A DNA stretch of 58,283 nt from Nanobdellota archaeon (GTDB lineage Archaea; Nanobdellota; Nanobdellia; Parvarchaeales; Parvarchaeaceae), in the NCBI GenBank assembly GCA_021794235.1, contig JAJYRE010000019.1, positions 1-58,283 on the forward strand, written 5' to 3'. The notes under the pieces are model-generated. The model was not told where the DNA came from and searched no databases. It saw nothing but the letters and a program-made list of their open reading frames with translations. This document shows positions 5,170 through 57,874 of the stretch, one piece after another. The position numbers and the translations under genes are program-made. Numbering within the stretch: position 1 is the first letter of the stretch; every line of letters starts with the position of its first letter.

Positions 5170-5673
5170 ATGAAAGATGAAAATTATAAATTTTTTACCG
5201 GCGGTAAATCTAATGTTCTGGCCGTGCGGAGCGCAAGAAAGAACCTGGACAGCGTTTTGGACGATATAAAGTCGGGCGACATACAGGAGTCTTTCAGATT
5301 CCAACACGGGACATCGGATTACTTCAGAGAGATGGTGTTTCACAAGGCATCGGATCTTAGAGACTCGGGAAAGTTCCCCTTAGACAGGAAGACTTTCCAT
5401 GTCGGCCGTGCGCTGGATAACCAGATGATGTGGAGTGATGCACCTAAAGCCTTTTACTCCAGGCACATCTATGTAGAGCGGCCGCCATACCACCTGGGTG
5501 TGATATCAATAGGTGTAAAGGGAAACCGCGGCATTATTAGCTGCGCAGAGATTGACTATGCAAGAAATAAGATCCTAGTCGATTCTAGTTTCCTTAATAC
5601 AGCAAACTACGACAGAATAAAGGACGTAATAGTTGTTGCCAGCATGGTATACTCCGACAATGTAAGAGGCTAA
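5170..5673 (+). CDS. Hypothetical protein (orphan; KNLDSVLD motif near N-terminus)
   Basis: Long ORF with own TATA box; no recognised domain. Confidence 0.7.
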   Translation: MKDENYKFFTGGKSNVLAVRSARKNLDSVLDDIKSGDIQESFRFQHGTSDYFREMVFHKASDLRDSGKFPLDRKTFHVGRALDNQMMWSDAPKAFYSRHIYVERPPYHLGVISIGVKGNRGIISCAEIDYARNKILVDSSFLNTANYDRIKDVIVVASMVYSDNVRG

Positions 5674-5750
5674 TCCTATACACCAGGCAATGTATTTTAA
5701 AAGTATTTATACTATTATTTGTCTTAAATTCTAATTAAAAAAGAGTCCTT

Positions 5751-6605
5751 ATGAGTAAGAAAAAAATTGAAGATTTGATAAGTTCGGTAAAAAGCGTACA
5801 CACCAATGGAGGTGACGTTGCACTATACAAAGAGGCACTCGATAAAGTCCCTAACATCGATCATTACGGAGTCGTTATGGTAGATAGACTGGTGAATGAC
5901 AATTACCCGAACGGAAACAAAGCCGGTAGATTCCTATATAATGATCTTTATCACAGCGGGGTTTTCGACCTTCATTTTAAGCGTCAATATGATCTAGTCA
6001 AGACTATAAATTCGATAATACCTGAGAACTCACAAAAACCGATAGCTGTACTGCATAATTCTGCCGATAAATGCGTAGGATACCTGGTCTCCGAAGTTCA
6101 CGGAATGCCGTTGGACGTATATCTGGAGTCGGGAGAGCTCATGGACATGTTAGCGATAGAAAGAAGAATGCAGTCGGTTTCTAGGGTCGAGAGCTTCCTC
6201 AGCGAGTCCGAAGTCTATAATATCCTTGCAAAGAGGGAACCATCGTATCTGGCAAGAACTTTTGACGATATCAAGAAATACAAGATATCATCCCAGGTAT
6301 ACAACGAAAGGAGGGCGGAGCTCAGTCAGGTTCTGACTAACCTGCGGAAAAGCGTAAACACACTCCACGGAAAGAACATTCATCATAACAGGATATCCCC
6401 AAGTAACATAATCGTCGACTACGACGGCAGGGAAACACCTGCAGTTTACCTTATAAACCCCCTTAACGGCGTGGACGCAGAATCTACGGCTGATAAGGAC
6501 GTATCAGATATGAAAGCTGTTGAGAAATTGATACTAAGGGAAATAGAAAAATCAAATTCAAAGGCAAACAAATACGAAGCGAAGTTAAAGCATCTTATAA
6601 AGTAA
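5751..6605 (+). CDS. Protein-kinase-like fold protein with degenerate catalytic motifs (pseudokinase candidate)
   Basis: GYLVSEVHGMPL...LHGKNIHHNRISPSNIIV...YLINP resembles the Bud32/RIO-type C-lobe with HGD->HNR and D(FG)->N; paralog at 27926-28597. Confidence 0.65.
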   Translation: MSKKKIEDLISSVKSVHTNGGDVALYKEALDKVPNIDHYGVVMVDRLVNDNYPNGNKAGRFLYNDLYHSGVFDLHFKRQYDLVKTINSIIPENSQKPIAVLHNSADKCVGYLVSEVHGMPLDVYLESGELMDMLAIERRMQSVSRVESFLSESEVYNILAKREPSYLARTFDDIKKYKISSQVYNERRAELSQVLTNLRKSVNTLHGKNIHHNRISPSNIIVDYDGRETPAVYLINPLNGVDAESTADKDVSDMKAVEKLILREIEKSNSKANKYEAKLKHLIK

Positions 6606-6611
6606 AACAGC

Positions 6612-9109: not shown

Positions 9110-9115
9110 TTTTTT

Positions 9116-18295: not shown

Positions 18296-19021
18296 CTAAC
18301 CCTGGTTTTTTAATAGCCCTACCCTGAGGCGATAGCTGTTAAGGTTGGTAAGTATGGATTTTGTCCCCCTTAAGTCGCCGCTGACGTATATCTCGTCTTT
18401 GTATATGTCAATAACTCTCGGCGATATGTACGTGTCGCCTTTTCCGGCGTTCGTCTCTACGATGATTCCGTTTGCGTTGTCCGGTATGAAATACATGGTC
18501 CATTCATTTACGCTTCCGTCCGATGAGGCATCCACGCTCTTGTGCATGAACTGGTATCCCGATCCTAGCAGGTTTTCATAATAGTCCACCTTCTCTTTTT
18601 TTGTCGGCTCTGCAAACATCGTCAGGTTTTTGACGTTATCATGGCTTTTTTTTGCCCACAGGACACTGTAAAGTCTTTTCTCGAGCGTAGAGATGTCGGA
18701 TAGATAATACTGGACGGAGTCATCTACATTAAATCCGCTGAATAGGAATTTTCCCAATCTGATGCTGTCACTGTTTTTGCTGGCCAACTTAATGCTCTTT
18801 ATATTAGACAGGTTACTGTCAGGATACTCGTGCGTAGTTACTATCAAATCCATTTTACTCATGTAGTTTGTTGTGCAGGCATAATCATTTGTTGTGTAGC
18901 ATCCGGTGGCCTTGGAACTTTTGATGGAACAATTACATCCATCCCCCTGTCCGCAGAGTATGGCTTCTATTCTGGCTTTCAATGGCTCCGGAAGGGCATG
19001 GGCCGTTTCATTCTTTGCCAT
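18296..19021 (-). CDS. Hypothetical protein with Cys-rich N-terminus
   Basis: 241-aa ORF; LCGQGDGCNC...GC...AC; no recognised domain. Confidence 0.65.
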   Translation of the reverse strand: MAKNETAHALPEPLKARIEAILCGQGDGCNCSIKSSKATGCYTTNDYACTTNYMSKMDLIVTTHEYPDSNLSNIKSIKLASKNSDSIRLGKFLFSGFNVDDSVQYYLSDISTLEKRLYSVLWAKKSHDNVKNLTMFAEPTKKEKVDYYENLLGSGYQFMHKSVDASSDGSVNEWTMYFIPDNANGIIVETNAGKGDTYISPRVIDIYKDEIYVSGDLRGTKSILTNLNSYRLRVGLLKNQG

Positions 19022-19737: not shown

Positions 19738-22700
19738 ATGAAAGGAAAACGTAAAGTTTCGAAGAAAAGGGAAGAGTTTCACCAGCAGTCCGCCCTGGAA
19801 TACCTCATAAGCTGGGGCTGGATACTTATTATAGTTGCTGTATCACTTGCTATACTCTACAGTTTCGGAATATTCAGGGTTGGAGCACCACAGACTATAA
19901 TCAGCGGATTCCAGGGGTTATCCGTTACCAATGCGGAGATAAATTCGAGCATGTTTGTCATAGAGATAACCAACAATTTCGGTTCTCCTGTTAATATAAC
20001 TAACGTATCTGCTCAGATAGGAAGCTCAATATTCGATCATGCAGAGTGTGAACTGTCCATATTAACACAAGGCCGTACAACCTTTTGCAGACTGACGCTG
20101 GAAAATATATCAGGTACTGCCGTAACTTCAAGTGTAAATATTAATTTTGTCCCCTACCGTGCAAGGTTGGAACTTATATCCAACGGTACAGTAACCTCCG
20201 CCCTGATTACGGGTCCACTCGCCATCAATACACAGGTAACATACTTCATAGAGACCGGCCTTCCCGTCGGCAGCAATTTTTCCGTAACTTTCGGCGGTGC
20301 AACTGAATATCAACGTGTTTCCGCGGCAGGAGCAAACATAAGCTTTAACAAGCCATTCGGCACCTACCAATACGATGTCCCGCAGATAAATTATCAGGGG
20401 TGTGTAAGTGCGGCCACGCCATCATCTGGAAGTTCAGAAACAAGTACTGTAAATACCGTACCTTTCCTGTCAAACTGCACAACAACATTTATAGAGACTG
20501 GCCTTCCTTCGAGTCAGCAGTGGCATGTGGTGTACGGAGGGGTAAATTCCAGCGTTGCAAATACAGGTTCCAAAATACTTTTCACGCAGAACAAACTCAC
20601 CAGTGTCACATCCCCATCGGTTGTAGCATACAGCAATAATCTTGAGTGTTCATCTCCTACGAGTAATGTTCAGGAGGGCGCGACAGTAAGTTTGGGTTCA
20701 TGGACATGCACAACCACGTTTACAGAGTCCGGCCTTCCTTCGAGTCAGCAGTGGCACACGATATACGGAGGTACCAGCACAAGTAGCGTGAATACAAACT
20801 CGCCTATAACTTTTACACAGACTGGTGTAACAAACGTATCAAACTTTTCATCTACTGCGTACAGTAATTCTCTTTACTGCAATTCCTACAGTTCTCCGGT
20901 ACTATATCAGGGGGCTTCATACAATTTCGGAGCATGGAACTGTACTACAACTTTTACAGAATCAGGCCTTCTGTCAAATCAGCAATGGACTCTAAACTTT
21001 CTTGGAGCAAACTATACGGACAGCACAAATATCGCCAGTGGAACCCAGTCGGGTCCTATAACCATATTCCAGAGCGATATTTCATCCGTAGACACCACGA
21101 TCTCAACAAAAGCCTACAGCAACAGCCTTGCCTGTAATGAGGGACTGTCGCCGGTTTCGCAGGGCCAGACCCTTAATTTCGGCTCCTGGACATGCACAAC
21201 CACATTTACAGAGTCCGGAGTACCTCTCGGATCCAGCGGAAGCGGCATAAGCGGAACGTTAGGATGGTCAGGACTGCTTAACGGGAACAGTGTAGCCTCT
21301 TCAACATCCTCTTCCACTATAAGCTATGTACAGTCCGGTATAAGCACCATATCTTCACTAACAGCAGGAGCGGATACCAATGGACTTAACTGCGGAAGTG
21401 CGAACACCTATTCAATATACCCAGGAGGATCTGCTTCATTTTCCTCATGGAACTGTATAACATCTTTTTCAGAGTCCGGAGTACCTTTAGGATACTCCGG
21501 CGCGGGTTCCAGTACTACGGTTGGTTGGACTGCAGACTATCCCAGTGGAACGGCGATCAACTCTTCCACATCCAGCAGTTCTCTTACCTACAGAGAAAAC
21601 GGAGTTTCATCCATACTGTCCGCTAATTCGAATGCGGTAGTAAACGGTCTGAGCTGCAGCAGTTCAAACACCAACTCTCTTTACTACGGAGGGTCTACCG
21701 CCTTTTCTTTATGGAGCTGCGTGACAACGTTCGGATCGGGCATACCCTCATCGTACAATTCCTACACTTGGGGAATAAACTATGCTGGTCTTCCACCCAC
21801 TAGCGGAACCGGTGTCGGCAATGCAATATCGATTTCAACCACAGTCGGGACTTCAAACGGTCAATCCGCGACCATAAATAATCAACCAATCGATTCGGGA
21901 AGTCTTAGTGGTATAAGCTGCAGTTATAACGCTACAGGCAACTCGTACATGCAGGGTGGCAGTTTTACGCTTAGCGATAGCTACTGGGACTGTAAGACTA
22001 CATTTTCGGAATCGGGCCTCCCAAGTCCGAGTACATATTCGCCATACTATTGGAATATAACGTTCGGAAGCCAATTCCAGGGCGGGAATACCCCAACATC
22101 AAGCTTTACATTTAACAACATTCCTGCAGCAAGTGCAATAGGCTGGCGTACAGGGGGTACAAATTCACAGCTTGCACTTCAGACACAAGCTCCTTGGGTG
22201 GGTCCGATTAGCGGTACAGACGGCGCTGCATTTGGCGATACAAGCGGAACGCAGTCCATATCATTTACAGCTCCAACGTCAGCTGCGTACTACGGCCTTG
22301 TCGTTGTAATTGGTTCCGGTGTTCATGAGATAACCGCCGGATCCGAAAGCATAACTTCATCAGGGAGTACAAGCTCATGCTCTATCAGTTATATCAACGG
22401 TCCGACCGGAAGCATTTTCTCACCTTACGGTGAAACAGGGGCAGTTATCTGGTGCAACCCCGTTACAAACGGCGCGACTTACACTGTAAGCGTGACTGCA
22501 CACACCTCAGGCGCGTACATAGCAATTTCAGACTACTTTATACCCGAGTTAAACACCGCCCAGTATGATTACTTAAACTACTCCGGACAGGGCGGCCCCA
22601 CCGCAAACTGCGTCTCCGGCGGTACAGTGTGCCAGTATTACGCATACTCCGGAAGCACCATTACACCAGGAGGATTCACGAACACCGTTCAGTTCTGCGC

Positions 22701-27925: not shown

Positions 27926-28597
27926 TTATGTCCTGTATGACTTTCTCTCGTACTTCGAGTGTAGTTTCTCCAGATAGTTCGTTGTTTTCGTCAGATTTCT
28001 ATCCAGAACCTTTCCATTGCCATCGCAGAACGTCATATTCTGATTTGAATAGAACAATAGAATCTTTCCATTATCAGTGATGTACATATTATCTACGTCG
28101 AAAGTCCCAGTCGGTAGTTTATCGTACTGCCCATTCTTTTTCAGCGTGTCCTTTACAGCATCTAGCTGCGAAATAACGTCTTCAATGAGTTTCAGTTTGG
28201 ACAGTAACGAGTCCCTAGTCTTTTTACCATATCCCAGATGCAAAACTTCCCTTACGGGTTCGGCATTTTTTTCGTTTATAAGATATCCCCTGATATACCC
28301 TTTTTCCACCCCTTCGTCCAGTACCATACCTACCGGCTTCGAAGTATTCTCCGGAAGCATCTTGTTAATCTGTTTTAAGTTCTGGTACTCCTCCTTCATA
28401 TCCCTTGCTGGGAACGGGTTAAAAAGCGAACCAAATACACTTGGAGAGGTTATGGACAGGTATTGCGAAACGCGAGCATTGTAAGTCAGTTCGTCGATCA
28501 TTTTGTACGGGATGTCAGATAGGTTAAGATCCTTCATCCTAATGGCAATATCCTCGTTTATTATGCTATCAAGCCCTTTATCAGTTTTTTTCACCAT
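27926..28597 (-). CDS. Kinase-like fold orphan, paralog of 5751-6605
   Basis: KEEYQNLKQINKMLPENTSKPV...GYLI aligns with KRQYDLVKTINSIIPENSQKPI...GYLV. Confidence 0.6.
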   Translation of the reverse strand: MVKKTDKGLDSIINEDIAIRMKDLNLSDIPYKMIDELTYNARVSQYLSITSPSVFGSLFNPFPARDMKEEYQNLKQINKMLPENTSKPVGMVLDEGVEKGYIRGYLINEKNAEPVREVLHLGYGKKTRDSLLSKLKLIEDVISQLDAVKDTLKKNGQYDKLPTGTFDVDNMYITDNGKILLFYSNQNMTFCDGNGKVLDRNLTKTTNYLEKLHSKYERKSYRT

Positions 28598-34008: not shown

Positions 34009-34047
34009 ACAATGAGATATTTAAGTTATAGACTCTTAATTAATAAA

Positions 34048-41600: not shown

Positions 41601-44600
41601 AGGTCCATTCAATGAAGTCTCAAACACATCCGCGATTTCATTCAATACGACTTATTCCACTTATTCGTACTCTACCGCAACTATAAAATACGGGCAGTGC
41701 GAGTTTATACCAAACAGCACCTCCGGGTCTACCGCAGCCGGTTCCACCGTTAATATAGCTTTCCAGAGTATATGTAAGAACTATTTCTTTGAAAGCGGCC
41801 TTCCAAACGGTTACTATTGGCATGTTTCATACTACAATACCACTAAATTGCCAACCACATCAGAGGTTGAGTTTACAACGGCATACGGCAAATTCAATCT
41901 TTCCATATTACCCACTGTGGTAAGCAACTGCGGATTTACACCAAATGTTACTAGCAGATCTCTAGTGTCCGGATCAAACCTATCAGTTACTTTCGTTAAT
42001 TCGAGCTGTCAAGAACCTGTTGTCATCCCTATATCGTTTTACAACCAAAACAATGTAACCCTCCCCAATGGTTATCAGCAGAAACTTGTTTTCGATTCCT
42101 TTAATTATTCAAAATATGAAAACGCCAATCTGTCTAATATAATGTTTACTTATGCAAACGGTACCGTCGTACCATCCTGGCTGGAATCCGGCAACTCTAA
42201 CACCTCGAATGACACCGTATACTGGTTTAAGCTTGCAGGCATCCCATCGGAGCGGGGCCTAACCATACATATGATTCTCAACCAGTCCTTCAAAAAATAC
42301 GCAGTGGACTTTAACAACCGCACCACTGGAGAAGCACAGCAGCTCGCTCCTTCATATGTAAACTACAGTGATATACAAAACGTGATGAAAAGCGGCCTGA
42401 TTTACCAGATATACTACGATTCCGGAAGTACAAGCTCCGGTGTTAGCACCGCTCAGGAGTCAGCTCTTTATAATGCTTCGATATCTAGCAGTACTACCAT
42501 ATCAGTGGGGGGGCAGTCCTTTATATCATCCACTCCTCTGTTCGTCGTACCGGGATCTACAAGCTCCCAGAACGTAGATGGGACCACCAGGAATTATGTC
42601 ATCAACAACTTGCAGGGAGGGTATTCCGGAGGGGCAGGCTTTCCAAACCCTCCTGTTGCCAACTATGGAAATGCCTTTATGATAAAGGAAATAGGTTTCA
42701 TCGCTTTAAACAGGCCTATACAATTTTCCGTTGATATAGACGATGGAGGAGCACTGGGAATCTCTAATTCAACCGGCAATGCATATTCCTGGCTCGGAAG
42801 CAGTTCTGTAAATCAGGCAAATATCCTAAATGAATGGGTGTCAGAGAGTGCTACCGTCCATTCATCCAGCCCTGTCAAGACCGGCGATTATGGCCTTGAA
42901 TACAGCTATATAAACCAAGGAGGTCCAGGGTACTGGAGTCTTTGGTCAAACGCCTCTTTGGGCTATTATTATCCGCTTGTTTTGGTAGATAATCTATCGG
43001 CTGGAACTCTTGTTAATACCTCCCTTTACACTACAACTGTTACAGAGACTGGTCTCCCTGCAGGATATAACTGGACTGCCTCATACGATGGAATCAACAA
43101 ATCAACAACATCTGGTTCGATATCGTTCAGCACAGTTTCTGGCAGCCATAACCTATATATAAGAACATTATCAAATGCATCATCAACACCAAATTGCACT
43201 TCTACTTACACACCGAATATCACACATTCAACTGAAACTGCTGGTACTACTACTCAAATTAAATTCTTCTCATCGGAGTTTTGCACGACATTATTCTTAG
43301 AGAAAGGTTTGATAGGAAGCCCGGCAAGTAACTCATTTTGGTCTGTAGCTTTCGATGGTAAGAATATTAGCTCCGCTATACCCAAGGTCTCGGTTCCTAA
43401 GGATATAGAAAGCTACAAAATTTTAAAAATCAAAAATTTACAAAATGTCTCAACAGTTCCTCCTCTCCAGCAGATGGTCAATGTCAGTAACAACATCTAC
43501 TCAGGTCTAGCCGCATCAAACTTCCAGAACGTGGAATTCTTTTATATAAACGGTACAGTTATACCTAGCTGGCTTGAAAACTACAGCTACGGTAAATACT
43601 CTGTATACTGGCTTGACCTTGGCACTATACCAGCCAACTCATCTATCAGTATATATATGGGATTCGCCCCCAACTCAACAAACGTATTGAACAATCTTAA
43701 TACGAGTATATCCTCTCAGCTTGGCCCTTATCCGCAGCCTTCAACTGGTTCTCAGTTACCTGCACGGCTAAGTGAAAACTATACCTCTTGTGGTAATTTC
43801 TTTGATATGGAAGAGTACCCAAATGGTGGAGGTCCAAACCCTAGTCCGAACAATATGATATGCTCATGGGTCGGCGGGAATGTTAATATTTATATGGCAG
43901 GAGGGAGCGGTGGTTACTCAGGATTGGGTATAACCGGAGTTTCAAATGGGAAGAACTATTACAGTCATTTCTTTAATACGCCATATTGCCTTAGCTCTTA
44001 CGGTTCAGTTTATTTACCGCCCGGTCAGTATAAACTAACTACTTCTAGAGGAAATGGGGGCGGCAGTTGTGGTCCCGGTGGTTTCATACTCACGGCACCT
44101 ACTATACAGATTTCTTATCCCAACAATATCATGCCGACTGCATTATTCATTTATCCAACAGTGGCATTTGGTGATGGTGCAATAAATGGGGCAATAACTA
44201 TATCAGATACACCATATAGTAATTATACTGCTGCAGCGTCAACTAATCTGTCGTGCTCTATAGCACCTGCATCAGTTACGGCAGGTTCCACGTTTTTGTT
44301 TACTGGATGGAATTGTACGAGCACTTTTGTGACTTTGAATATTCCTAGTGGATATCATTTCTCCGTTACGTTTGATAATGTTACAAGAAGCGGCAGAACC
44401 GGATCACCCCTGAACTTATCTACAATATCGTATACCGGATTATACAACTATAATGCAAGCACGCCATCTATAGGGTATAACACTTCTGGAAAAACATATG
44501 CTGGTGTTACAACACAGTTGTCGGAATGGTCGGTAACCAAACAATTTATAGAGACTGGTTTACCTGTGGGGGCCACCTGGTACGTAAATTACAATGGAAC

Positions 44601-47600
44601 AAATAAATACAGTACTTCAGATTTAATAGATTTTATAGGATCTTCTCAAAACCTTTCATTTACAATACCTAGTGTAGTAACGGGTAGTGCTTACATATAC
44701 GTACCAAATATCAGCAGTGGATTTGGTCAATCCACTGAAAATACGAGTATCTCCTTCACCCGTGAGAACGCACTTACACCTGCAGCGGTAACATCATTTA
44801 TACCAATAAATATAACTAATTCTCAATCAACCGCAACTACTGCACCCTTCCAGCAGATGGTCAATTTATCTTATTCTACTTACAGTGCTTATGCAAATCT
44901 CTCAAGCGGCCACCAGTTCCAAAACGTTGAATTTTTCAATTTGACCTCCGGTACACTAATTGACTCCTGGCTGGAAAACTACACTAAGAATTATGCACTA
45001 TTCTGGATAAAGCTACCTAATGGCATACCATCTAAGCGTACACTTGATGATATGGCCGTCGGTTTTGCTCAAAAGAATGTTAGCTTATTCAATAAAATTA
45101 CAACAGGAGAAGCCCCGCAGCTGTCTTTGACAGGCAATTATACTCTCGGTCTCCCTGGCGGATCGTACGCGGAACAGACTAATGGATTCAAATGGATGAA
45201 TAATGCTACGCAGCCGTTTACACTATCGATATGGGTCAATCCCGCTTCTCCAAACGGTGTTATCATTGATGAGGCTAGTCCGACCGCCAGCTGGCATGAT
45301 AGCTGGGTAGAACTTGTAAACGGCAATATTGATATGAAAGTATGGAATTTAGGTTGCGTAAGCCTAGGGTCCATACCGCTTGATCAATGGTCAAACATAG
45401 TAATATCAGGTTCCTTGTCTGGAAGTACGATAAATTATTCTGGTTATGTAAATGGCGTTTATAAGGGTTCTGGGTCAGGTTCCAGGAGCGTGCCCGGTAG
45501 CACTAATTTAATGTACTATCCACTCGGTATATCCGACAGTACCAACTGCGGTTCTGCAGCATCTTTCGTTGGGAGTATGGAAAATTATCAGATATACAAC
45601 AAGTCATTAACTACGACTGCCGTTACAAAACTGTATTCCGAGGGAATATATGGTGCGCCTGTTAACTCATACGGCGTGTCTGCGTGGTGGCCCCTTAATG
45701 GCAGCGGTAATAATCTTATACAGAATAACTCCATAAAGCTATATGGTACTTCATCCTACCACAGACAGGATGGATACGCGAAATATGATAACGGCGGTGA
45801 TGTATTTACTAACTACTTTGACTTCAATGGAACCGCACTTCCGAACGGATGGACAAATCATAATGCCGGTTTGCTTTATCCAAGCGATGGATTATTCTGG
45901 GGGCAGGGTATCTCCGGATACAGCACAACAACTTTCAGCCCTCCGTATATAGCTGAGATGTATGTAAAGTCCACTTCATATTCCGGCGGTGACGATGGGG
46001 TTCTACTTATGGGTCCGAGTATAGGAAGTTCTAATTATTGGGTCGGATTTGGCGACGGAGGTTCAACAAATTCTCCTGTATACGGATACGGTGCAAACAA
46101 CGCATGGTTATCTAGCAACCTTCAAGCGCTCAGCTTAAATTTCCCGTATATATTTGGGTATGAGGCATTTAACACCAGCAAATCTCAATATTATTTGAAT
46201 TATGCACTGAAGGCGAGTGATGCAATAGCTGCAAATTCACAATATCTTGAATTATGGTCCAACACTGGCACCTCCTCAGTCTATAAAACTTACTGGATAC
46301 GTTTCAGACAGGTGCCTCCTAACAACGTTATGCCTGCGGTTTCTACCGGACAAAATTATACTGTACCTATCACTCTTGCTCTAAACGGCATTCGGAACGA
46401 GAATAGAACTTTATCATACGGGAATCAGAGCAATTTCACCGCCGTATTATCCAACACGTCCGAATACGTAAGACTTTGGAATAATATAAGTGGCGTGATA
46501 ACACCCCTTACCGGTTTTAGCAGGTCAAGATCTACGTATCTTGCAAATTTATCCGCAGGAACTATAACCGTTACTGCGGGAACAAATTCCAGCGGCATAA
46601 GAAACATCACCTATACTGAGACTATATCCAAAGCAACTCCGTTCTTAGCACTTTCAGTTTCACCGTCCATAAACTATACGTACAACGCAACCAATATAAC
46701 AGTGAAAGCAAAGGTTTCTACAATAAATAACCAGCTGAGTGCAGGACTTTACATAAACGGTAAGTTTAACCAAACCATAACATCCTTGAAAACAATAAAT
46801 CTTGGCAATTCACCCGGCGTTTATTCGGTAATTCTGAATATAAGTGGTAATGCGAATTATTCAAGCAGTTCAGTAAAAATTACAAGAGAGATCTACCCTG
46901 CTTCATCGCTCGTCAATTACTATATTCCTCTTAACATAACAAATAGCCAGCTTGCGGCGACACCGGCTCCTTTCCAGCAATTGATCAACTTGTCATATGC
47001 ACAGTACAAGGCATACATAAATTTGAGCAGCGACCACCAGTTCCAAAACGTTGAATTTTTCAATTTGACCTCCGGTACACTAATTGACTCCTGGCTGGAA
47101 AACTACACTAAGAATTATGCGCTATTCTGGATAAAGCTACCTAATGGCATACCCGCCTCAACAGAACTGAGCGACGTGGCAGTAGGTTTTGCCCCAAACA
47201 CCACCAACCTGTTCAATCAGAATACTGTGGGGGAAGCCCCGCAGCTTTCACCATCCTACGGACAGTATGATAACGGTGCGGGTATATTCAGTTATTATTC
47301 CAGATTCGGCGATATGTCTGTACTGCCACCGGGATGGAATGAGAACGGTTCGCCTACAACCTCTTTCGGCACTGACTACCTTAAATTGACTGAAACGAAT
47401 ACAGGTTCTTGGCAAGGCATATCCAAGCTCTTTCCTGCCGGCGTCAACAAAACCGCAGGAGTCTTTGAAATTTATGGGAATATATATAAATCTGGTACAG
47501 AGTCCAATTACCAGGTACTTGCTGGCGTAGGGGCAAGTATGCCTGCGGTGGCTGCTGCCGTGGGTGGATACGACGATGATACATCACAACATCCGTATTG

Positions 47601-49788
47601 GTTTACATCCTTACTATCGAATGTTAGACAAGGTGGTGCGAGCGGATCCGCACAGTTGTTAAATAATTCATATGTGTCTGGCATAGCTTACAACGGCTTA
47701 GGAACTACAAAGTCCAATGGTGTGGGGTACTTGAATTATCAGGGTCAGGGTACAGTTACTTCCACAACATCAGAAAACGTGGCTTACATAAGTGTAGGAT
47801 TATCTGGCTATGGATTGGAAAGCGTATATCTGTACTGGCTGAGATTGCGTGCCTATCCGCCGAATGGATCTATGCCTTCCGTTAGCTTCGGGCCCATCGT
47901 ACCGAAGAACATAACAAATTATGTAATGCTCACCATATCCAATAGTCAGAATAAAGCTACATCTTCTCCTTTCCAGCAGATGGTCAATGTAAGCAACAAA
48001 ATCTACGGTAAGATAGCTAATTCGAACTTCCAGAACGTGGAATTTTTCTACAAGAATGGAACGATAATTCCTTCGTGGCTTGAGAGCTATAAATATCAAA
48101 ATAGCGCGCTTTACTGGCTGAGGCTCGGTTCGATTCCTTCAAACGGCACCCAGATTGCATACTTAGGATTCGCATCAAACAGTACAGTTCTGTTCAATGC
48201 CAATACAGTCGGAGAATCCCCGCAGCTCTCCTCAACTTATGGCCAATATGACAACGGTGCAAATGTTTTCGTTGCTTATGATAATTTCACAAGATTAAAC
48301 TCGAGTATCGGATGGATAAACGCTATAGGAACCGTACCAAGCTACACTGTGAATGATGGTCTTACTCTACACTCTACATCTACAAATACATGGGAGGGGC
48401 TTGTTCTAAACACTACCTACAACGCGACAAAGTACGTTATGGATTCGTACGCCCACTTTAGCTCATTATCAGGAGTTGGTGAAGAAATTGACATGCAGAC
48501 CAACCAAAATAGCTTCTCTTCTTCTAGTACGCATCACATAGGCTTGACTGATGAAAATACCGTTTACGCTTCTCAGAATTATAACGGTTCCAGTAGCATA
48601 GTAAACACGCCTATAAACTCACTGAATTTCGGTGTTTGGTCTATATATGCCAATAACACCTATTCAAAGTTGTCTTTCAATTATACAAGTACAACAAATA
48701 ACGGTGTTGACTTGCCAGTCTTAAGTTCACTATACCCTAGTATGGAGAGCGCTCGTTCTAACATTAGCATACTTATTAGGTACATTCGTATACGAAACCA
48801 ACCCCCCAATGGAGTAATGCCGACTGTAAAATTTTCAACCCTAAAGTTGCCCAGTGGAATTACGAATTATGCTAAAATATCTATAGACAATGCGCAGCCA
48901 GTTTCTGAATCAAATTACCAACAGATGATTAATCTTTCAAGCAACACATTCAAGGGCTACGCAGCTTCAAACCTCCAGAACGTCGAGTTCTTCTACTCGA
49001 ATGGCACAGTAATACCTTCATGGCTGGAGAACTACACCTATTCAAAGAACGCGTTGTACTGGATAAAAATGAACATTAATGCCGATTCAATTGAAAACAT
49101 ATACGTGGGTTTTGCGTCAAACAGCACAAATCTGTTTAATTCAAACACGGTGGGCGAGGCTCCGCAGCTGTCTTCCACCTACGGACAGTATGACAACGGC
49201 GCAGACGTATTCCCTATTCTGTATCAGAACTTTGCCGGGACTTCGGTCCCGACCGGATGGACATCCACCGGCTCTATCACAATAAACAACGGCGTCACAT
49301 CCGCGTACTCATCTTTACTCACTACGAGCGCCTCCAGCTATGGGGATAACTCCAGCCAGATACTGGATTTTTACGGAAAGTTTCCAACACCAAGCCAAGT
49401 GGACAACCCTATGGCCGGATACGTATCAAGCAGCGGCTTTAGCAATAACAACAATCCGGGGTCTGGTTTTGATCTCAATACCAACATAGGCTCTGGTTTG
49501 GCTATAATCGTTCACACTTCCAGCTGCAATCCGTATATCAGCACTTCTTTCCCGCTAAACACAAATACGGTTTTCTCCATCCACACGGTCTCCGGCAGTT
49601 CAACGCAGTTTTCCTACAATTATGGTGCGGTCGACAGTTTGGCATGCGGTCAGACAACCCAAATAACAGTCGGTATTTCTAATGATGGGTCTACAGGACA
49701 GACGATTGGTCCATTTTACTGGTTTAGGATAAGGGTAAATCCTCCGAATGGAGTAATGCCTTCAATGATCTTTGGAGAGGTACAGTGA
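35650..49788 (+). CDS. Giant (4712 aa) N-terminally anchored surface adhesin: ~26 tandem Ig-like repeats, six DUF2341-like modules, LamG-like and other head domains
   Basis: Basic N-terminus plus TM; 26 tandem F-x-E-x-GLP-x4-W type repeats, usually with paired Cys; six QQ..N..F...NGT/SGT..[PD]SWLE..W modules; FTLSIWVNP...F.GS..N.QIYN..L LamG-like segment. Confidence 0.9.
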   Translation: MAKRSRHSTKKHYNVHFTAFLIVLVIMFIALFFLATQSNLLNVNVLGLVTQTIHSIISPPQNISTSPPSNTTNTTLITPRFTLFYEKGLPSSTLWSISSGTNIQYSNVNLINFSSTGALVSFTVNKVIINGCVFTPVPFSAATASGSTNQIVFSSSCTTTFTELGLPNDTAWGMSYSNLTRNSSSDSIGFDTGYGTFNFNVFQSSNSSCAYAPYPLSGSLQAGSSKTIVFLSLCANSTNSGVVFAETGLPTGYNWSVTYDNTTLSSVNPFIKFSTVSGHIYPFFNTSSINRNGCVFTPSPQSGGAIPGETVAINFTSECNTSFQETGLPFGLNWKVSYNGLTESSNSTSLNFNTSYSTSPATVNNVIVGNCTYIPSLNYSGSIASGSAVSVLFKSSCVSTFTEKNLPSGLSWTVNYDNKVVTSYSNKIQVITPNITTNFTIETTVNGGCIYTPTPNNGNLSSGSGQSVVFAQACHTVFTSTGLPSGISWAVEYDGSTRDGGYNSSIEFPYYANTTFGFNVSTIRLGNCTYTPSPQNGTIQGGALQNIVFSAACSTSFYESGLPSGDSWAVTYDNNTLSSTSTSVVFNGINGSYKYNLSDVPISGGCYYAPSPSSGTLTAGSNISILYSNVCTTTFIDPGLPQGANWTVTFAGATKHTLQQNVSFVLSPGKYYYQISQTSFGGCTYAPNETSGSTSVGQDVHVTFNLTSCDTVFSESGLPSGSSWQVKYDGSSVDSQSSSISFNNLPGNYSFSISPIVLGTCTFAPNESSGVIGAGSTPAIHFNSSCYTDFYENGLPSKSLWTVNYSDKNTSSVGTSMSISTPYSTYPYSVYNISAGPDCYYIPQPSTGTDSAGTSVTITYVRECVSTFKETGLYAGTPWSVVYNGINASSRSSSISILGVPGNYSYKIVNAYGYGCEFVPNETSSSLVSGNNVSLSFNATSCTTTLTEKGLPSGQSWNATFLAFNSTNSNTVSFVTGAGNYSLLVPHLNLSNCIFEASPPSVIRAGTSLNLQFHATCYSNITESGLPNGTKWTLNLTPSYNSLGYQTYPDQVYSTQKSYIEWISVNSTRNFVIDTIPINQKCHYEPQPSSGSVTAGHNMHISFYNSCITNFYEKGLPSGSKWAVDYNGINATSTSTIISFTTAVGVYSFRVYGVIFGGCYYLPNMTSGTINSSSTIGIGFVKKYCTTLFTESGLPSGYKWNVTYNSTVLSSTSSSISFNTTPSSSALSYVVSPTHLSSGNCYVNITSGNGTAVPGSTVSLQYINSCETTFTEAGLPSGDTWTVSYGGFTNSSSTSSIIIYALPGAHTFTPSIVGAGSGCFYQPSPVSGSLSAGSSSSITYSLECNTTFTELGLPGSARWSVDFGGSNHSATSSSIVFTTSTGSNSFTVPSVNFASCSYLPSPSSGTSVAGGNTTVSFTENTCNTTFYEKGLPTKTTWTIKYDGIQVSPSNNNITLTTPAGIFVLDAYKVKISGCVYSPSTYSSDIAAGSQFTIDFTASCSTNFTESGLPPSTYWFVDYNGTSVSSNTSMVSIPSQNGIYSYSVAYVGNSSCYYSPSPSSGNLVAGSALGVTYTGGCTTTFYENGLPLNTNWTVSYNGSSLHSTARSMQFVTGPGNHSYSISNITVDNCLYVGVPSSGNASAGSSITVVFNQTECSTVFKARGLASGLNWTINFGDSNYTQSSSSVTVTTRPGPVNLTAYSITSNNCTFNPSPSSAKIAAGSSIYINYTSSCITSFVEKGLPSGITWSAKYDGITNYSSTSGISITSIYGNFTFNIPRIQVSANCYLTPNPDTGHLVSGGAVSVNFSTYCLSQFSESGLPTGLKWSVTYDSITNSSNSADMLFNVLSGNYSYSIKAIKDGNCFYTPNSSSGYVNAGGYTSVKFTESACTSYFSESGLPSGTFWNVTFDSLINTSTKPIIQLNTSNGQYPFSIPSQIVAGCTYVPVPASGDIGAGSNTSITFNRDYCISHFNEIGLPSGFDWNVTLGPFNEVSNTSAISFNTTYSTYSYSTATIKYGQCEFIPNSTSGSTAAGSTVNIAFQSICKNYFFESGLPNGYYWHVSYYNTTKLPTTSEVEFTTAYGKFNLSILPTVVSNCGFTPNVTSRSLVSGSNLSVTFVNSSCQEPVVIPISFYNQNNVTLPNGYQQKLVFDSFNYSKYENANLSNIMFTYANGTVVPSWLESGNSNTSNDTVYWFKLAGIPSERGLTIHMILNQSFKKYAVDFNNRTTGEAQQLAPSYVNYSDIQNVMKSGLIYQIYYDSGSTSSGVSTAQESALYNASISSSTTISVGGQSFISSTPLFVVPGSTSSQNVDGTTRNYVINNLQGGYSGGAGFPNPPVANYGNAFMIKEIGFIALNRPIQFSVDIDDGGALGISNSTGNAYSWLGSSSVNQANILNEWVSESATVHSSSPVKTGDYGLEYSYINQGGPGYWSLWSNASLGYYYPLVLVDNLSAGTLVNTSLYTTTVTETGLPAGYNWTASYDGINKSTTSGSISFSTVSGSHNLYIRTLSNASSTPNCTSTYTPNITHSTETAGTTTQIKFFSSEFCTTLFLEKGLIGSPASNSFWSVAFDGKNISSAIPKVSVPKDIESYKILKIKNLQNVSTVPPLQQMVNVSNNIYSGLAASNFQNVEFFYINGTVIPSWLENYSYGKYSVYWLDLGTIPANSSISIYMGFAPNSTNVLNNLNTSISSQLGPYPQPSTGSQLPARLSENYTSCGNFFDMEEYPNGGGPNPSPNNMICSWVGGNVNIYMAGGSGGYSGLGITGVSNGKNYYSHFFNTPYCLSSYGSVYLPPGQYKLTTSRGNGGGSCGPGGFILTAPTIQISYPNNIMPTALFIYPTVAFGDGAINGAITISDTPYSNYTAAASTNLSCSIAPASVTAGSTFLFTGWNCTSTFVTLNIPSGYHFSVTFDNVTRSGRTGSPLNLSTISYTGLYNYNASTPSIGYNTSGKTYAGVTTQLSEWSVTKQFIETGLPVGATWYVNYNGTNKYSTSDLIDFIGSSQNLSFTIPSVVTGSAYIYVPNISSGFGQSTENTSISFTRENALTPAAVTSFIPINITNSQSTATTAPFQQMVNLSYSTYSAYANLSSGHQFQNVEFFNLTSGTLIDSWLENYTKNYALFWIKLPNGIPSKRTLDDMAVGFAQKNVSLFNKITTGEAPQLSLTGNYTLGLPGGSYAEQTNGFKWMNNATQPFTLSIWVNPASPNGVIIDEASPTASWHDSWVELVNGNIDMKVWNLGCVSLGSIPLDQWSNIVISGSLSGSTINYSGYVNGVYKGSGSGSRSVPGSTNLMYYPLGISDSTNCGSAASFVGSMENYQIYNKSLTTTAVTKLYSEGIYGAPVNSYGVSAWWPLNGSGNNLIQNNSIKLYGTSSYHRQDGYAKYDNGGDVFTNYFDFNGTALPNGWTNHNAGLLYPSDGLFWGQGISGYSTTTFSPPYIAEMYVKSTSYSGGDDGVLLMGPSIGSSNYWVGFGDGGSTNSPVYGYGANNAWLSSNLQALSLNFPYIFGYEAFNTSKSQYYLNYALKASDAIAANSQYLELWSNTGTSSVYKTYWIRFRQVPPNNVMPAVSTGQNYTVPITLALNGIRNENRTLSYGNQSNFTAVLSNTSEYVRLWNNISGVITPLTGFSRSRSTYLANLSAGTITVTAGTNSSGIRNITYTETISKATPFLALSVSPSINYTYNATNITVKAKVSTINNQLSAGLYINGKFNQTITSLKTINLGNSPGVYSVILNISGNANYSSSSVKITREIYPASSLVNYYIPLNITNSQLAATPAPFQQLINLSYAQYKAYINLSSDHQFQNVEFFNLTSGTLIDSWLENYTKNYALFWIKLPNGIPASTELSDVAVGFAPNTTNLFNQNTVGEAPQLSPSYGQYDNGAGIFSYYSRFGDMSVLPPGWNENGSPTTSFGTDYLKLTETNTGSWQGISKLFPAGVNKTAGVFEIYGNIYKSGTESNYQVLAGVGASMPAVAAAVGGYDDDTSQHPYWFTSLLSNVRQGGASGSAQLLNNSYVSGIAYNGLGTTKSNGVGYLNYQGQGTVTSTTSENVAYISVGLSGYGLESVYLYWLRLRAYPPNGSMPSVSFGPIVPKNITNYVMLTISNSQNKATSSPFQQMVNVSNKIYGKIANSNFQNVEFFYKNGTIIPSWLESYKYQNSALYWLRLGSIPSNGTQIAYLGFASNSTVLFNANTVGESPQLSSTYGQYDNGANVFVAYDNFTRLNSSIGWINAIGTVPSYTVNDGLTLHSTSTNTWEGLVLNTTYNATKYVMDSYAHFSSLSGVGEEIDMQTNQNSFSSSSTHHIGLTDENTVYASQNYNGSSSIVNTPINSLNFGVWSIYANNTYSKLSFNYTSTTNNGVDLPVLSSLYPSMESARSNISILIRYIRIRNQPPNGVMPTVKFSTLKLPSGITNYAKISIDNAQPVSESNYQQMINLSSNTFKGYAASNLQNVEFFYSNGTVIPSWLENYTYSKNALYWIKMNINADSIENIYVGFASNSTNLFNSNTVGEAPQLSSTYGQYDNGADVFPILYQNFAGTSVPTGWTSTGSITINNGVTSAYSSLLTTSASSYGDNSSQILDFYGKFPTPSQVDNPMAGYVSSSGFSNNNNPGSGFDLNTNIGSGLAIIVHTSSCNPYISTSFPLNTNTVFSIHTVSGSSTQFSYNYGAVDSLACGQTTQITVGISNDGSTGQTIGPFYWFRIRVNPPNGVMPSMIFGEVQ
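35890..42010 (+). repeat. Tandem array of 26 ~79-aa Ig-like (thermopsin-type) protein repeats
   Basis: Counted by eye from FYEKGLP (first) to FFESGLP (26th). Confidence 0.85.
44910..45029 (+). repeat. 120-bp direct repeat, copy 1 (DUF2341-like core)
   Basis: Matches 47034-47153 with a single mismatch (44997 a vs 47121 g). Confidence 0.95.
47034..47153 (+). repeat. 120-bp direct repeat, copy 2
   Basis: 119/120 identical to 44910-45029. Confidence 0.95.
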
Positions 49789-53472: not shown

Positions 53473-54060
53473 ATGGCAAAGAAGACCTATAAACCAACTA
53501 TGCTCACGCAGGAAGCCTATAACACATTGAATAACGCCAGAATATATCTGCAGAAACGAACTTCCAGCAGGATAACATTTAACGATACCATATCCGAGTT
53601 TATAGGCAAAAAGCTCGCTTTAATGGAGTTAGAACCGACTCTAAGGGAGTATATCTTCAGTTTCGTAGAACAAATATCGAAATCAAGTGAAATTCGTGGA
53701 GTTATCCTGTACGGTTCTGTAGCCAAAGGCACGTCCGGTAAATTTAGTGATATCGACCTCTTTATTATGATAGAAGGGGATGAACAAGCCTTTTATGAAA
53801 AAACCGCCAGGGCGGCGTTTGAAAATACCGAAAAAATCCACAAAGAACTGTTGTCAAAGGGGATTTACTCATCTATAAGTCCATTAATCCTGTCTTTGAA
53901 AAGATTATCAGAGTTCAGTCCGCTCTTCCTGGATATATTAGATTACGGAATAGTCCTTTACGATAGGAAAAATACTGCAGATGACTTTTTATCCTCGTTA
54001 AGAAAAATAAAACACAAGCGGCTAAAAATCGCAGGCGTGGAGGTTCTGGAATGGACGTAG
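53473..54060 (+). CDS. Minimal nucleotidyltransferase (MNT) antitoxin with N-terminal putative DNA-binding extension
   Basis: LYGSVAKG...SDIDL (GS-x10-DxD); N-terminal EAY..L...TFNDTI resembles RHH/VapB-type antitoxins. Confidence 0.85.
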   Translation: MAKKTYKPTMLTQEAYNTLNNARIYLQKRTSSRITFNDTISEFIGKKLALMELEPTLREYIFSFVEQISKSSEIRGVILYGSVAKGTSGKFSDIDLFIMIEGDEQAFYEKTARAAFENTEKIHKELLSKGIYSSISPLILSLKRLSEFSPLFLDILDYGIVLYDRKNTADDFLSSLRKIKHKRLKIAGVEVLEWT

Positions 54061-54458
54061 AGAAAGTAAAAGCCGCCTTAGACAATTCGGATACGTGGTT
54101 GGGCTCCGCAAAAAGCAACTTCAGAGACGGTCAGTACAGTGCCGCCCTTTATAGTCTGGAAATGGCCGCTGAGATAGCCCTCAAATCTGTATTGCTGTCG
54201 ATAAATGTAAACGTTCCAAAGGTGCATGATATCTCTTCTTTAGTCGTAAAGTACGCGGAGGAAAATAAAAAGCTAAACATAATAAGGGAAAATGAGAAAT
54301 TCATAAAAGAAGTCTTCTTGGACCTTCTTACCTACAGGAATTCGGCCGGTTATATGTTTGAATACAGAAAATCCGAGAATGAATTTAAGAAATTGGTGAC
54401 GGAGTACCTGCCAAAAACAGAAAAGCTTATAGACATCTGTAGAAAGACAGCGCATTGA
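54051..54458 (+). CDS. HEPN domain protein (MNT partner)
   Basis: A..W..SA...Y..A...EMAAEIALK...PKVHDI...RNSAGY; overlaps the MNT gene by 10 nt. Confidence 0.88.
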   Translation: MDVEKVKAALDNSDTWLGSAKSNFRDGQYSAALYSLEMAAEIALKSVLLSINVNVPKVHDISSLVVKYAEENKKLNIIRENEKFIKEVFLDLLTYRNSAGYMFEYRKSENEFKKLVTEYLPKTEKLIDICRKTAH

Positions 54459-56127: not shown

Positions 56128-56184
56128 GGGACCGGTTTTCGGCTATGGAAGCTTTAAATAGGGGCACACTTCATAAATATTAGA

Positions 56185-56631
56185 ATGGTAATGGATTCCA
56201 AAAACCTTGACAGCATTCTGGATAAACCAAAAACACTTCTTTCTAGGGTTTCAATAGCTAACAACGAAGAATTAAAATATCGTGGTTATAACGTTTCTCT
56301 AGCAAACGGTAAAAATTTGAAATATCAAGGTTCGTGGTTGTACTCGTCAAATGGCGAGAGCCCGTACACCGGAAAGAATGTAGAGGTTCTTAATCAGTAT
56401 ACTCACGAGAAGGAGACTGTTAGGCTAAACCTGCATCAAAGAGTAGCATTGGCCCTGGGTCGCCCTGTAAAAGAGAGTGTACGCAGATACGACGGTTGGG
56501 GGAAGGAGGGCCTAATATTTTATGTTTTTAAGTACAAGGACAAGGGGCATACATTTCTGATGCTTGATTATCCCCACAGTCATGACTACCATTTCCATAC
56601 CGATTACCGCGGTAGCGACGCAGTCCAGTAG
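56185..56631 (+). CDS. Hypothetical protein (orphan; KNLDSILD N-terminal motif)
   Basis: TATA tttaaata ~25 nt upstream; no recognised domain. Confidence 0.7.
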   Translation: MVMDSKNLDSILDKPKTLLSRVSIANNEELKYRGYNVSLANGKNLKYQGSWLYSSNGESPYTGKNVEVLNQYTHEKETVRLNLHQRVALALGRPVKESVRRYDGWGKEGLIFYVFKYKDKGHTFLMLDYPHSHDYHFHTDYRGSDAVQ

Positions 56632-56704
56632 ATCTGATCGGGTTCTGAACGGTAATTTTTATCAGTCCTTCGCGGATAATTTCGCATTTTAGTCAGTTTC
56701 CCAC

Positions 56705-56850
56705 TATTTTTATATAATGATATTATATCATTATAAATAATATTATTTATATAAGTACTATATCACAAATTAAATTTAATATCGGAAATATACTATATGA
56801 TATTATTATATAATTATTAAGTATAATAATTATAATTATATAACATAATA
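56705..56850. other. Extremely AT-rich intergenic element with nested palindromes
   Basis: 11-bp-arm IR at 56713-56735, perfect 20-bp palindrome at 56732-56751, 12-bp at 56769-56780, 14-bp at 56826-56839. Confidence 0.6.
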
Positions 56851-56941
56851 AGCGCAATAGTTTGCGACGTTTTTCTTCTTTTTTATACAATATATATGGG
56901 AAAATGCCTAAAAATAAATAGGAAGAGACCCCTAATTAAAT

Positions 56942-57340
56942 ATGCGTCAGAAAAGAATGCACGGTAGCGACATAGAAAAAGGGCTGAATATGCTCGGCTT
57001 CCCGTTTAGAGTCATATTTTCATTCATATTGGTGATGTTCCTGATCCTTGTTTTTTTATCGCTTGTATCGCTCGGGTTTTACTATAAATTTAATACGCCG
57101 ATAAACTGGCTTGGGAACGCCTGGAGCGCCTGGGGCGGCCTTTGGGTCGTACTGGCGGTAATATTCATATTCTTCCGGCCATGGTGGAGATGGTCATACT
57201 ACTGGAATGATTACAGGCACAGGGGACTTGATGAAGGCATCTCCACGAACATCGCAATGCACAGGGCAAGGATGAGGTTTGCTTCCGGTGAGATCTCCGA
57301 AAAAGAGTACAAGAATATAATAAATAACCTTAAAAATTGA
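56942..57340 (+). CDS. Two-TM membrane protein with C-terminal SHOCT domain
   Basis: ARMRFASGEISEKEY SHOCT motif; Trp-rich TM region. Confidence 0.85.
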   Translation: MRQKRMHGSDIEKGLNMLGFPFRVIFSFILVMFLILVFLSLVSLGFYYKFNTPINWLGNAWSAWGGLWVVLAVIFIFFRPWWRWSYYWNDYRHRGLDEGISTNIAMHRARMRFASGEISEKEYKNIINNLKN

Positions 57341-57364
57341 TAGCAATAATATTGTTATTCTAAT

Positions 57365-57874
57365 TTAATGTTTATAGTGCTCAGCAAAGTATCTTTTTTC
57401 GTAGTTTTGGTGGTTTTCAGCCATCTCTGCATGTGCGAGCGGTTGCGGGTATGCTAGTTCCTTTGTCCGATCATCGTAATAGTACAGCTGCTCCCTGGCC
57501 TGTCTTTCCACCCTCTCTAGGTTCCTTAGCCTGTTCTCTTGCTCCCGCTTTACCGATTCCCATGCACGCTTAAGGTCCTCCTCTTTTTCCTCTTTTCTGA
57601 TTAGGTGCATCCCCGCTAATCCGTAGGCTGCCATGATGGCTACACCGGTTATCTCTAGACCGTTTCCAAAGCCGGATGAACCGTTGCTATTCGCATACGC
57701 TCCTCCAAGAAACAAAGGGAGCCCATACAAAAACCTCATAAGAAAATTATTCGGAAAATCCTTTGATTTCCTGTTGCCTATGAATATATTTTGTAACCCT
57801 TCTTTTAGTTTGTAGAATCCACCGTTCGCGTCAGTTGTTACTGATAATTGCTCCTCTAATTTATGACTGGCCAT
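57365..57874 (-). CDS. Hypothetical protein (two TM helices plus coiled coil)
   Basis: Start MASHKLEEQL at 57874; Gly-rich hydrophobic hairpin followed by an E/R/K-rich helix. Confidence 0.7.
   Translation of the reverse strand: MASHKLEEQLSVTTDANGGFYKLKEGLQNIFIGNRKSKDFPNNFLMRFLYGLPLFLGGAYANSNGSSGFGNGLEITGVAIMAAYGLAGMHLIRKEEKEEDLKRAWESVKREQENRLRNLERVERQAREQLYYYDDRTKELAYPQPLAHAEMAENHQNYEKRYFAEHYKH

Follow-up and report, generated by a model that had tools for sequence, protein, structure and literature searches.

A lineage-specific N-terminal helix motif on otherwise unrelated soluble orphan proteins of a Parvarchaeaceae genus, and its possible role as a docking tag

We analysed the whole of a 58,283-nucleotide contig (the window, contig C17) from the genome G000 of a Nanobdellota archaeon of the family Parvarchaeaceae, which comprises 714,732 bases in 25 contigs and is 78% complete. 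A first-pass annotation of this window had proposed that unrelated orphan proteins carry a common N-terminal K-x-L-[DE]-x-x-[LI] tag. We found that a short N-terminal motif is indeed common to orphans that have neither a Sec or pilin signal nor a known family, but that its defining residues are L-[DE]-x-φ-L, φ being hydrophobic, rather than K-x-L; a basic residue ahead of this core is a preference only. The motif is position-specific, lineage-specific, selected at the protein level and modular. As it also sits on unrelated soluble orphans, these features together are those of a peptide that serves as a portable address or docking label, and we see roughly even chances that the N-terminal helix acts in this way, read by a common partner and leading to one of several candidate destinations. 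A literature search, made mainly on listings of papers, returned no description of such a motif.

A position-specific motif in one genus

Genes were called in G000 and in all comparison genomes with one and the same caller of our own, which combines the longest open reading frame (ORF), a codon-usage score and greedy non-overlap, and which gave 705 genes covering 89% of G000. Near-identical DNA was found in mine-drainage metagenome sequencing runs, with no RNA run among those listed. In the G000 gene set, the pattern K-x-L-[DE]-x-x-[LI] occurs 9 times in the first 30 residues and 42 times elsewhere (1.9-fold, p = 0.065), compared with 4.2±2.2 expected when the N-termini are shuffled; this enrichment being only marginal, it was dropped as the defining pattern. 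The recurring element among these strict matches is L-D-S-I-L and its relatives, located very near the start. The refined core L-[DE]-x-[IVLF]-[LI] is found 35 times at residues 2-15 versus 103 times elsewhere in the 705 genes, a 7-fold enrichment whose p value (1.5e-16) is inflated because the regular expression was refined on this very genome, so that the value that counts is that of the fixed-expression replication given below. The density of the refined core is 3.55 per 1000 residues at positions 2-15 versus 0.51 in the remaining proteome, and shuffling residues 2-20 yields 6.4±2.6 occurrences and never more than 16 over 1000 rounds. The expectation of the first-pass annotation that the motif is commoner at N-termini than at internal positions is thus borne out.

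In G000 the leucine that opens the core (L0) peaks at residues 5-8 of the carrier proteins, no enrichment of the refined core is seen at C-termini, and no N-terminal peak is obtained with the reversed pattern, with two permuted patterns or with a pattern having K/R for D/E. An unbiased scan of 3- and 4-mers returned pilin-signal and transmembrane words as the top N-terminal words, with DSIL (7 versus 10) and KLE (22 versus 75) modest alone.

With the regular expression held fixed for all other genomes, the enrichment was replicated within the genus and was absent outside it. The same-genus genome G012 (~680 kb, 688 genes) has 27 occurrences at residues 2-15 versus 115 elsewhere (4.8-fold, p = 5e-10), and the more divergent G019 of the same genus (358 kb, 375 genes) has 12 versus 62 (3.5-fold, p = 5e-4). 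In contrast, there was no significant enrichment in two genomes from other families of the class, G034 (400 kb, 444 genes; 5 versus 97, 0.97-fold) and G025 (345 kb, 328 genes; 1 versus 50, 0.39-fold), or in a 250-kb, 197-gene control from E. coli K-12 (1 versus 40, 0.57-fold). Expressed as the proportion of proteins in which the motif falls within residues 2-15, the values are 5.0, 3.8 and 3.2% in the genus versus 0.3, 1.1 and 0.5% in the controls. Furthermore, when position-specific scoring matrices built from one genus genome were applied to the other, N-terminal enrichment was 4- to 19-fold, and the same matrices gave ~1-fold or no enrichment in G034 and G025.

In the consensus of 76 N-terminal instances, the initial M and a K/R/Q/S-rich segment of 1-12 residues precede L-[DE]-[E/S/K]-[I/L]-L-[E/D/S/G]-[D/E/K]-[G/E/D]. 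Some true members narrowly miss the expression through an I at L0, a V at +4 or an N at +1, and in many instances the tag is followed by stretches rich in G/P/N/S, for example MSLDSILGAGSPSDEGG and MTENLEQILGEDPGQEP. A hydrophobicity filter left 36 clean carriers in G000 and 33 in G012.

The codons of the motif vary freely among carriers: leucine is encoded by CTN and TTR, serine by TCN and AGC, and all Asp and Glu codons occur. Codon use at the motif sites roughly tracks genome usage, apart from modest skews that G000 alone shows at two positions. Orthologues hold L0 and L4 across CTN/TTR changes while their flanks and linker lengths diverge; in ten orthologues of one window protein (56185+, described below) L0 is written with four Leu codons and L4 with three. 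No upstream k-mer is common to the carriers, and no DNA-level repeat or common promoter was found, nor any DNA similarity at the motif or upstream of it. Judged from these codon comparisons, it is the tag peptide that purifying selection acts on, at the protein rather than the DNA level. Among the 19 regex-positive G000 proteins with a homologue in G012, 8 retain the strict core there, the misses being mostly pilin or transmembrane false positives, start-site shifts and one-residue variants.

Window instances, modularity and carriers

Nine instances in the window had been listed by the first-pass annotation. All nine peptide strings were confirmed in their genes, but their placing near the N-terminus proved loose, the distance to the first residue of the longest ORF ranging from 4 to 49 residues. 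Neither Pfam nor NCBIfam at curated thresholds assigns a family to any of the nine proteins, which are named below by first coordinate and strand.

5149-5673 (+): 174-residue orphan; tag KNLDSVLD at nucleotides 5239-5262, with L0 at residue 33 of the longest ORF and 26 from the ATG at 5170.
5751-6605 (+): 284-residue putative Bud32/RIO-like pseudokinase, HHNRISPSN replacing HxD; tag variant KKIEDLIS at nucleotides 5760-5783.
18296-19021 (-): 241-residue Cys-rich orphan; ARIEAILC at nucleotides 18953-18976 (residues 16-23), with I at L0.
27926-28597 (-): 223-residue member of the kinase-like family of 5751+, from which the catalytic motif has been lost; KGLDSIIN as tag, nucleotides 28556-28579.
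28581-29486 (-): 301-residue orphan; weak variant TSLETYLG at nucleotides 29454-29477.
31546-32730 (-): 394-residue orphan; tag KDLERILI at nucleotides 32671-32694.
34012-34770 (+): 252-residue protein; RTLDILLI at nucleotides 34156-34179, which is residues 49-56 of the ORF and ~37 from the ATG at 34048.
56185-56631 (+): 148-residue protein; tag KNLDSILD at nucleotides 56200-56223, then a ~50-residue linker and a small "DYPHGY" core domain.
57365-57874 (-): 169-residue orphan counted from the ATG at 57874; weak variant HKLEEQLS at nucleotides 57842-57865, with Q at φ3.

Four of the nine are solid, 5751+ and 27926- are paralogues of each other, 34012+ is internal, and the remainder are variants or have no homologue for comparison, two or three of the nine being weak. 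The peptide of 34012+ was rejected as a tag because it falls within the conserved body of the protein, where it aligns with HKRSLE[VI]ML in 9/9 homologues. For 57365- there is a single genus homologue, reading MESGLEKALGG at its candidate start, and for 18296- no homologue was found in 32 genus genomes. The observation that the recognisable enzymes of the window do not start with the motif stood, as only 27926-, 31546- and 56185+ match the regular expression in the first 25 residues of window proteins, plus two pilin-signal false positives.

The motif is conserved in the family of 5149+, in which 14/14 genus homologues retain L-[DE]-x-[IVL]-[LI] at about residues 18-26, and in that of 56185+, in which L-[DE]-x-x-L is kept in 10/11 family members, with L12 invariant and L8 near-invariant among 11 homologues and a linker ranging from ~8 to ~60 residues. 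These two proteins had been described as near-identical in tag and with no other similarity, and the alignment between them is indeed confined to the 12-residue tag.

The same description as unrelated fails for 5751+ and 27926-, which belong to one kinase-like family together with C15_39408, C15_46967 and C22_40473 (BLASTP, MAFFT). The paralogues C15_39408 and C15_46967 pass the Pfam kinase cut-offs (Kdo 22.6 and Pkinase 33.7 bits), with RIO1 also matched. The catalytic Asp is lost in both window copies and in the 302-residue orthologues (HHNRISPSN, HNNLYxxN, PTGTFDVDN). In 7 cases a kinase-like gene of 295-302 residues comes next to the 5149+ homologue, and these seven orthologues start with MxKKxS[DEK]IE[KD][LV]L; 5149+ and 5751+ therefore form a conserved two-gene module in which both genes are tagged. 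At 5149-6605 this module is a ~175-residue orphan followed by a putative ~300-residue Bud32-like pseudokinase (HNNLYxxN for HxD), present in at least 7 genus genomes. The C-terminal half of 31546- is possibly GNAT-like according to Atlas structure rows with TM-scores of 0.31-0.42, which, these scores being low and the model poor, we take as a lead only.

Modularity is seen in the 56185+ family. A homologue search from the single protein returned only the query itself, and a family profile retrieved 222 representatives among 1.84 billion proteins (E<=1e-3). The DYPHGY core, …GW.G.LPFY.FKC…DYPHGY…L.CP.C, is a widespread small domain without a Pfam family; it may be a zinc-ribbon-ended domain, and no fold in the PDB matches it (Foldseek best E 0.2; VIA-align best Z 2.1). 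In the 17 best representatives (P0002-P0018), L-[DE]-x-x-[LIV] precedes the core in 14 and a variant does so in 2 more. Among 29 more distant representatives that were fetched, the tag is present in one, most of them beginning straight at the core. In a representative with tandem-duplicated DYPHGY domains, a single example, the full tag is on the first copy only. The core domain of the 56185 family thus occurs widely, and the tag is an addition to it that is specific to one clade.

AlphaFold2 (AF2) models predict a separate helix exactly over the motif in both proteins modelled, which have unrelated folds, with a confidence below that of the cores. In 56185+ a helix at residues 4-13 (pLDDT ~50) is followed by a low-confidence region at 15-61 and the core at 62-130 (pLDDT ~85), and in 5751+, with an overall pLDDT of 78.5, the helix is at residues 4-12 with pLDDT 54-64. 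The top Foldseek matches of 5751+ are all kinases or pseudokinases, Bud32 included, and are weak (E ~6e-3, TM-score ~0.3).

Taken with their N-termini removed, the 69 carriers of G000 and G012 fall into 55 groups in one round of phmmer, in which remote paralogy may be under-detected. Carriers are enriched in K, R, D, E and Y relative to other proteins, and transmembrane-like segments (Kyte-Doolittle) are found in only 4/36 G000 and 1/33 G012 carriers versus 202/660 and 192/651 of the others, none of those in carriers falling on the tag. They are also poorly conserved: a G012 homologue is present for 11/36 carriers versus 460/669 others (p = 5.7e-6), with a median identity of 35% versus 56% (p = 0.003). 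A Pfam family (E<=0.01) was found for 6/33 scanned carriers versus 23/30 non-carriers of the window (p = 3.7e-6), which agrees with the claim that the motif is commoner on orphans than on recognisable proteins. The six comprise two kinase-like proteins, an NAPRTase, a hemerythrin, a weak PrkA match and one spurious match.

Carriers are unevenly distributed over contigs, as 11/36 are on contig C15, which has 51/705 genes (p = 3e-5), mostly in one 20-kb stretch of small genes. Clustering within 3 genes is at 11 versus 9.1 expected (p = 0.31), so that only the contig-level excess on C15 stands. Other paralogous carriers occur as adjacent pairs on C20, C25 and C15. Also on C15, the NAPRTase of the genus (C15:12680-14104) has a tag-like N-terminal extension of 12-15 residues, M[EK]KL[ND]SLL, which the G025 orthologue lacks.

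The C15 island itself spans ~39.4-47.6 kb and 56.0-58.3 kb and consists of ~20 small genes, mostly on a single strand and many of them orphans. It includes two active-looking kinase-like paralogues, a GNAT, an S-adenosylmethionine methyltransferase, a DUF218 protein and a weak WLM-like match. The strict tag is on eight of its genes and variants are on several more. Elsewhere in the window, at 53473-54458 (+), an overlapping nucleotidyltransferase (PF18765/PF01909) and HEPN (PF05168) pair has the usual MNT-HEPN toxin-antitoxin-like arrangement.

A proposed docking helix and its rivals

The explanation that we favour, at about even chances as said above, is that numerous proteins of the genus, unrelated in other respects, have been given a short amphipathic helix right at their N-terminus. 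Its consensus reads M-x(3-7)-[basic/polar]-L-[D/E]-x-[I/L]-L-[acidic/G], often continued by a Gly/Pro/Asn/Ser-rich linker, and its carriers are soluble, highly charged, fast-evolving proteins. The hydrophobic face (L0, φ3, L4) and the flanking acidic residues would be read by a common partner that collects or routes the tagged proteins; that a single reader serves all tags is what we infer from the pattern as a whole. The proteins could be destined for a chaperone or unfoldase, for some structure inside the cell, or for a contact or bridge between cells. With the tag on ~3-5% of the proteome, this explanation would yield ~30 candidate interaction proteins per genome, including the orphan and pseudokinase module and the 20-kb C15 island, and the tag peptide could serve as bait for the reader and as a way to ask whether proteins cross cell-cell bridges. 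Were the tag to serve nothing but docking or turnover inside the cell, it would, to judge from our literature search, still be a previously undescribed archaeal short linear motif of proteome-wide extent.

The presence of a co-occurring ATPase or pilus machinery had been suggested as a check. A family search of G000 found two T2SSE-family ATPases of pilus type, a double-AAA protein resembling Cdc48 and another three AAA matches; such ATPases are thus present, but none of them is tied to the tag. The tagged gene C25_36644, which adjoins a T2SSE ATPase, was set aside as a link since the arrangement is not kept in G012. In the 78%-complete G000 no match was found to FtsK/SpoIIIE (PF01580, E<=0.01; VirB4 and VirD4 families were not searched), the type of coupling ATPase expected for T4SS- or T7SS-like secretion substrates, to MIT (PF04212) and the ESCRT-III family Snf7 (PF03357), which an ESCRT MIM-MIT interaction would require, or to the encapsulin and bacterial microcompartment (BMC) shell families PF04454 and PF00936, for which positive controls matched and for which, given that completeness, absence is not proven. 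Among genus-conserved proteins without outgroup matches no reader candidate emerged, housekeeping genes dominating the list because the outgroup sets are partial. Two side observations were also made: a 132-residue membrane protein at 56942-57340 (+) in the window has a weak CdvA-like coiled-coil match (PF18822, 22.7 bits, below cut-off), and at ~42.5-45.8 kb of contig C11 there are DnaJ-like, DnaK-like and possible GrpE N-termini, judged by eye only.

Several points weigh against a shared address. That a reader binds the tag is our proposal. The genus genomes are kin with some orthologues in common, so that the replication is not fully independent. Conservation by homologues holds for 56185+ and 5149+ as given above, but is partial for 31546- (strict core in 5/11 and a one-residue variant in 3 more) and weak for 28581- (strict core in 1/13 and [LIM]-E-x-x-L in about five). 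The regular expression also matches pilin signals (QSALEYLI), of which the false-positive form is QSALEYLI(S/T)(W/Y)GW, as well as transmembrane segments. In a few carriers the pattern belongs to a fold already known, that of hemerythrin or of the N-terminus of PrkA, which means that some matches are ordinary helix starts, and most NAPRTase orthologues have N in place of D/E at +1. The Pfam control consists of 30 window proteins rather than a random genome sample, and 3/36 clean carriers (C2_15496, C22_40473 and C23_9027) were outside the Pfam scan. The AF2 helices were read without coordinates and say nothing on packing against the core. Finally, gene starts rest on a crude longest-ORF caller; the called starts are supported by TATA-like boxes seen 25-35 nucleotides upstream of several carrier ATGs when the upstream sequences were inspected.

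The main rival holds that there is no common reader and that the pattern is merely this lineage's favoured way to start a helix (an N-cap and hydrophobic staple), amplified by many young orphans. That the pattern is predicted to form a helix, that PrkA and hemerythrin folds begin with it, that the loose pattern, like permutations close to it, is mildly more frequent at N-termini and that conservation is uneven in some families all fit this account. It would not account for the lack of enrichment in E. coli and in G034 and G025, although the latter two are small genomes of the same class, nor for the confinement of L0 to the narrow window of residues 5-8, the invariance of the motif in many carriers despite a variable or low-confidence linker to the core, or the addition of the tag to an older core domain, and we therefore rate it as rather unlikely. 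Common descent, either as diverged paralogues or as a shuffled exon-like N-terminal module without present function, does explain some carriers, namely the five kinase-like genes and the adjacent pairs. As an explanation for the whole it is very improbable, given 55 groups among 69 carriers once tags are removed, two AF2 cores with unrelated folds, the lack of DNA similarity in the motif and ahead of it, and a motif kept under selection in orthologues. Even more remote, to the point of being scarcely credible, is an artefact of gene calling or a feature of the nucleotides or of translation initiation, for instance a leaderless-mRNA signal or downstream box: the fixed distance of the motif from the start codon and the modest codon skews at two positions in G000 would suit it, but leucine is written as CTN and TTR, serine as TCN and AGY and acidic residues with all Asp and Glu codons, no upstream k-mer is common to the carriers, and several ATGs have the TATA-like boxes mentioned above.

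DPANN archaea depend on host cells. We know of no signal or cargo list for what they pass to their hosts, and to our knowledge most of their lineage-specific genes are without known function. One form of the docking helix, whose probability is contained in that given to the shared-reader tag, is a signal for export or translocation by which a repertoire of effectors would reach the interior or surface of a Thermoplasmatales host; the idea of translocation into a host goes back to the first-pass annotation. The carriers are effector-like, being lineage-specific, fast-evolving and soluble and including kinase-like and possibly GNAT-like proteins; nearly a third of them are gathered on C15; and a strict N-terminal position suits threading or co-translational reading. 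ARMAN cells are described as having cytoplasmic bridges to Thermoplasmatales, which might let larger proteins pass, and an unexplained cytoplasmic tubular structure (PMC4110969), and it is these that make host delivery attractive. No secretion machinery, however, is tied to the tag, FtsK/SpoIIIE was not found and the only ATPases of that kind are the two pilus-type T2SSE proteins; the adjacency of a tagged gene to one of them is not kept in G012, and a tag-like extension sits on the housekeeping NAPRTase. We accordingly regard as unlikely that the tag exports effectors, and as equally unlikely its wider form, in which the tag labels a new archaeal delivery route taking soluble, Sec-independent Parvarchaeota proteins (kinase-like, acetyltransferase-like and many with new folds) through bridges or contacts into Thermoplasmatales cells, or into the ARMAN tubular structure. 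If true, the carriers would be the first effectors of a DPANN archaeon to be defined as a repertoire by their sequence.

Comparison with known systems

Archaeal Sec, Tat and class III signals resemble the tag in being N-terminal and in having a few polar or basic residues before a core, and differ from it in the hydrophobic h-region or twin arginine that the tag lacks. A Sec or Tat signal was rejected because there is no hydrophobic h-region (~8-20 residues behind a basic n-region) at the tag, which has three hydrophobic residues only, and no twin arginine. A class III prepilin signal (here QSALEYLISWGWILIIV) was likewise rejected, since the carriers are without the ~20-residue hydrophobic helix that comes after its cleavage motif and pilin-like ALEYLI matches were filtered out. 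The true pilin signals of the genome (beginning QSALEYLISWGW) are a separate class that fits the regular expression by chance. In the window, 19738-23004 and 24366-27197 (+) encode proteins of 1088 and 943 residues with the same pilin-type N-terminus, QSALEYLISWGWILIIVAVSLAILY, a chance match of this kind. A single ORF at 35650-49788 (+) codes for 4712 residues and has a hydrophobic segment at its N-terminus; its product is presumably a giant surface protein.

In the Plasmodium PEXEL (RxLxE/Q/D) and oomycete RxLR systems, the motif follows a Sec signal peptide, and PEXEL is cleaved. The likeness lies in a short N-terminal motif on a large, lineage-specific, fast-evolving repertoire of a host-dependent organism and in its basic-x-Leu-acid flavour. 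The archaeal tag is without a signal peptide, for which reason a PEXEL/RxLR-type signal was rejected.

Cargo peptides of BMCs and encapsulins are short terminal amphipathic helices, joined by a flexible linker to unrelated soluble proteins and read by one partner. The same arrangement of a terminal helix and flexible linker on unrelated cargo was found here (AF2 helices, G/P/N/S stretches, 55 groups among 69 carriers), so that the tag resembles them in being a portable terminal amphipathic helix with a linker on unrelated soluble proteins. It differs in its consensus and in that no shell genes were found in G000, and we know of no compartment of this kind in this archaeon; ARMAN cells do have the tubular structure mentioned above.

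A similar core is found in paxillin-type LD motifs (LDxLLxxL), which occur in several internal copies in eukaryotic focal-adhesion adaptors and dock into the grooves of helical bundles. We know of no prokaryotic reader of an LD-type motif. The tag, a single N-terminal copy with no homology to them, shares with these motifs a near-identical core, L-D-x-L-L, and the character of an amphipathic helix.

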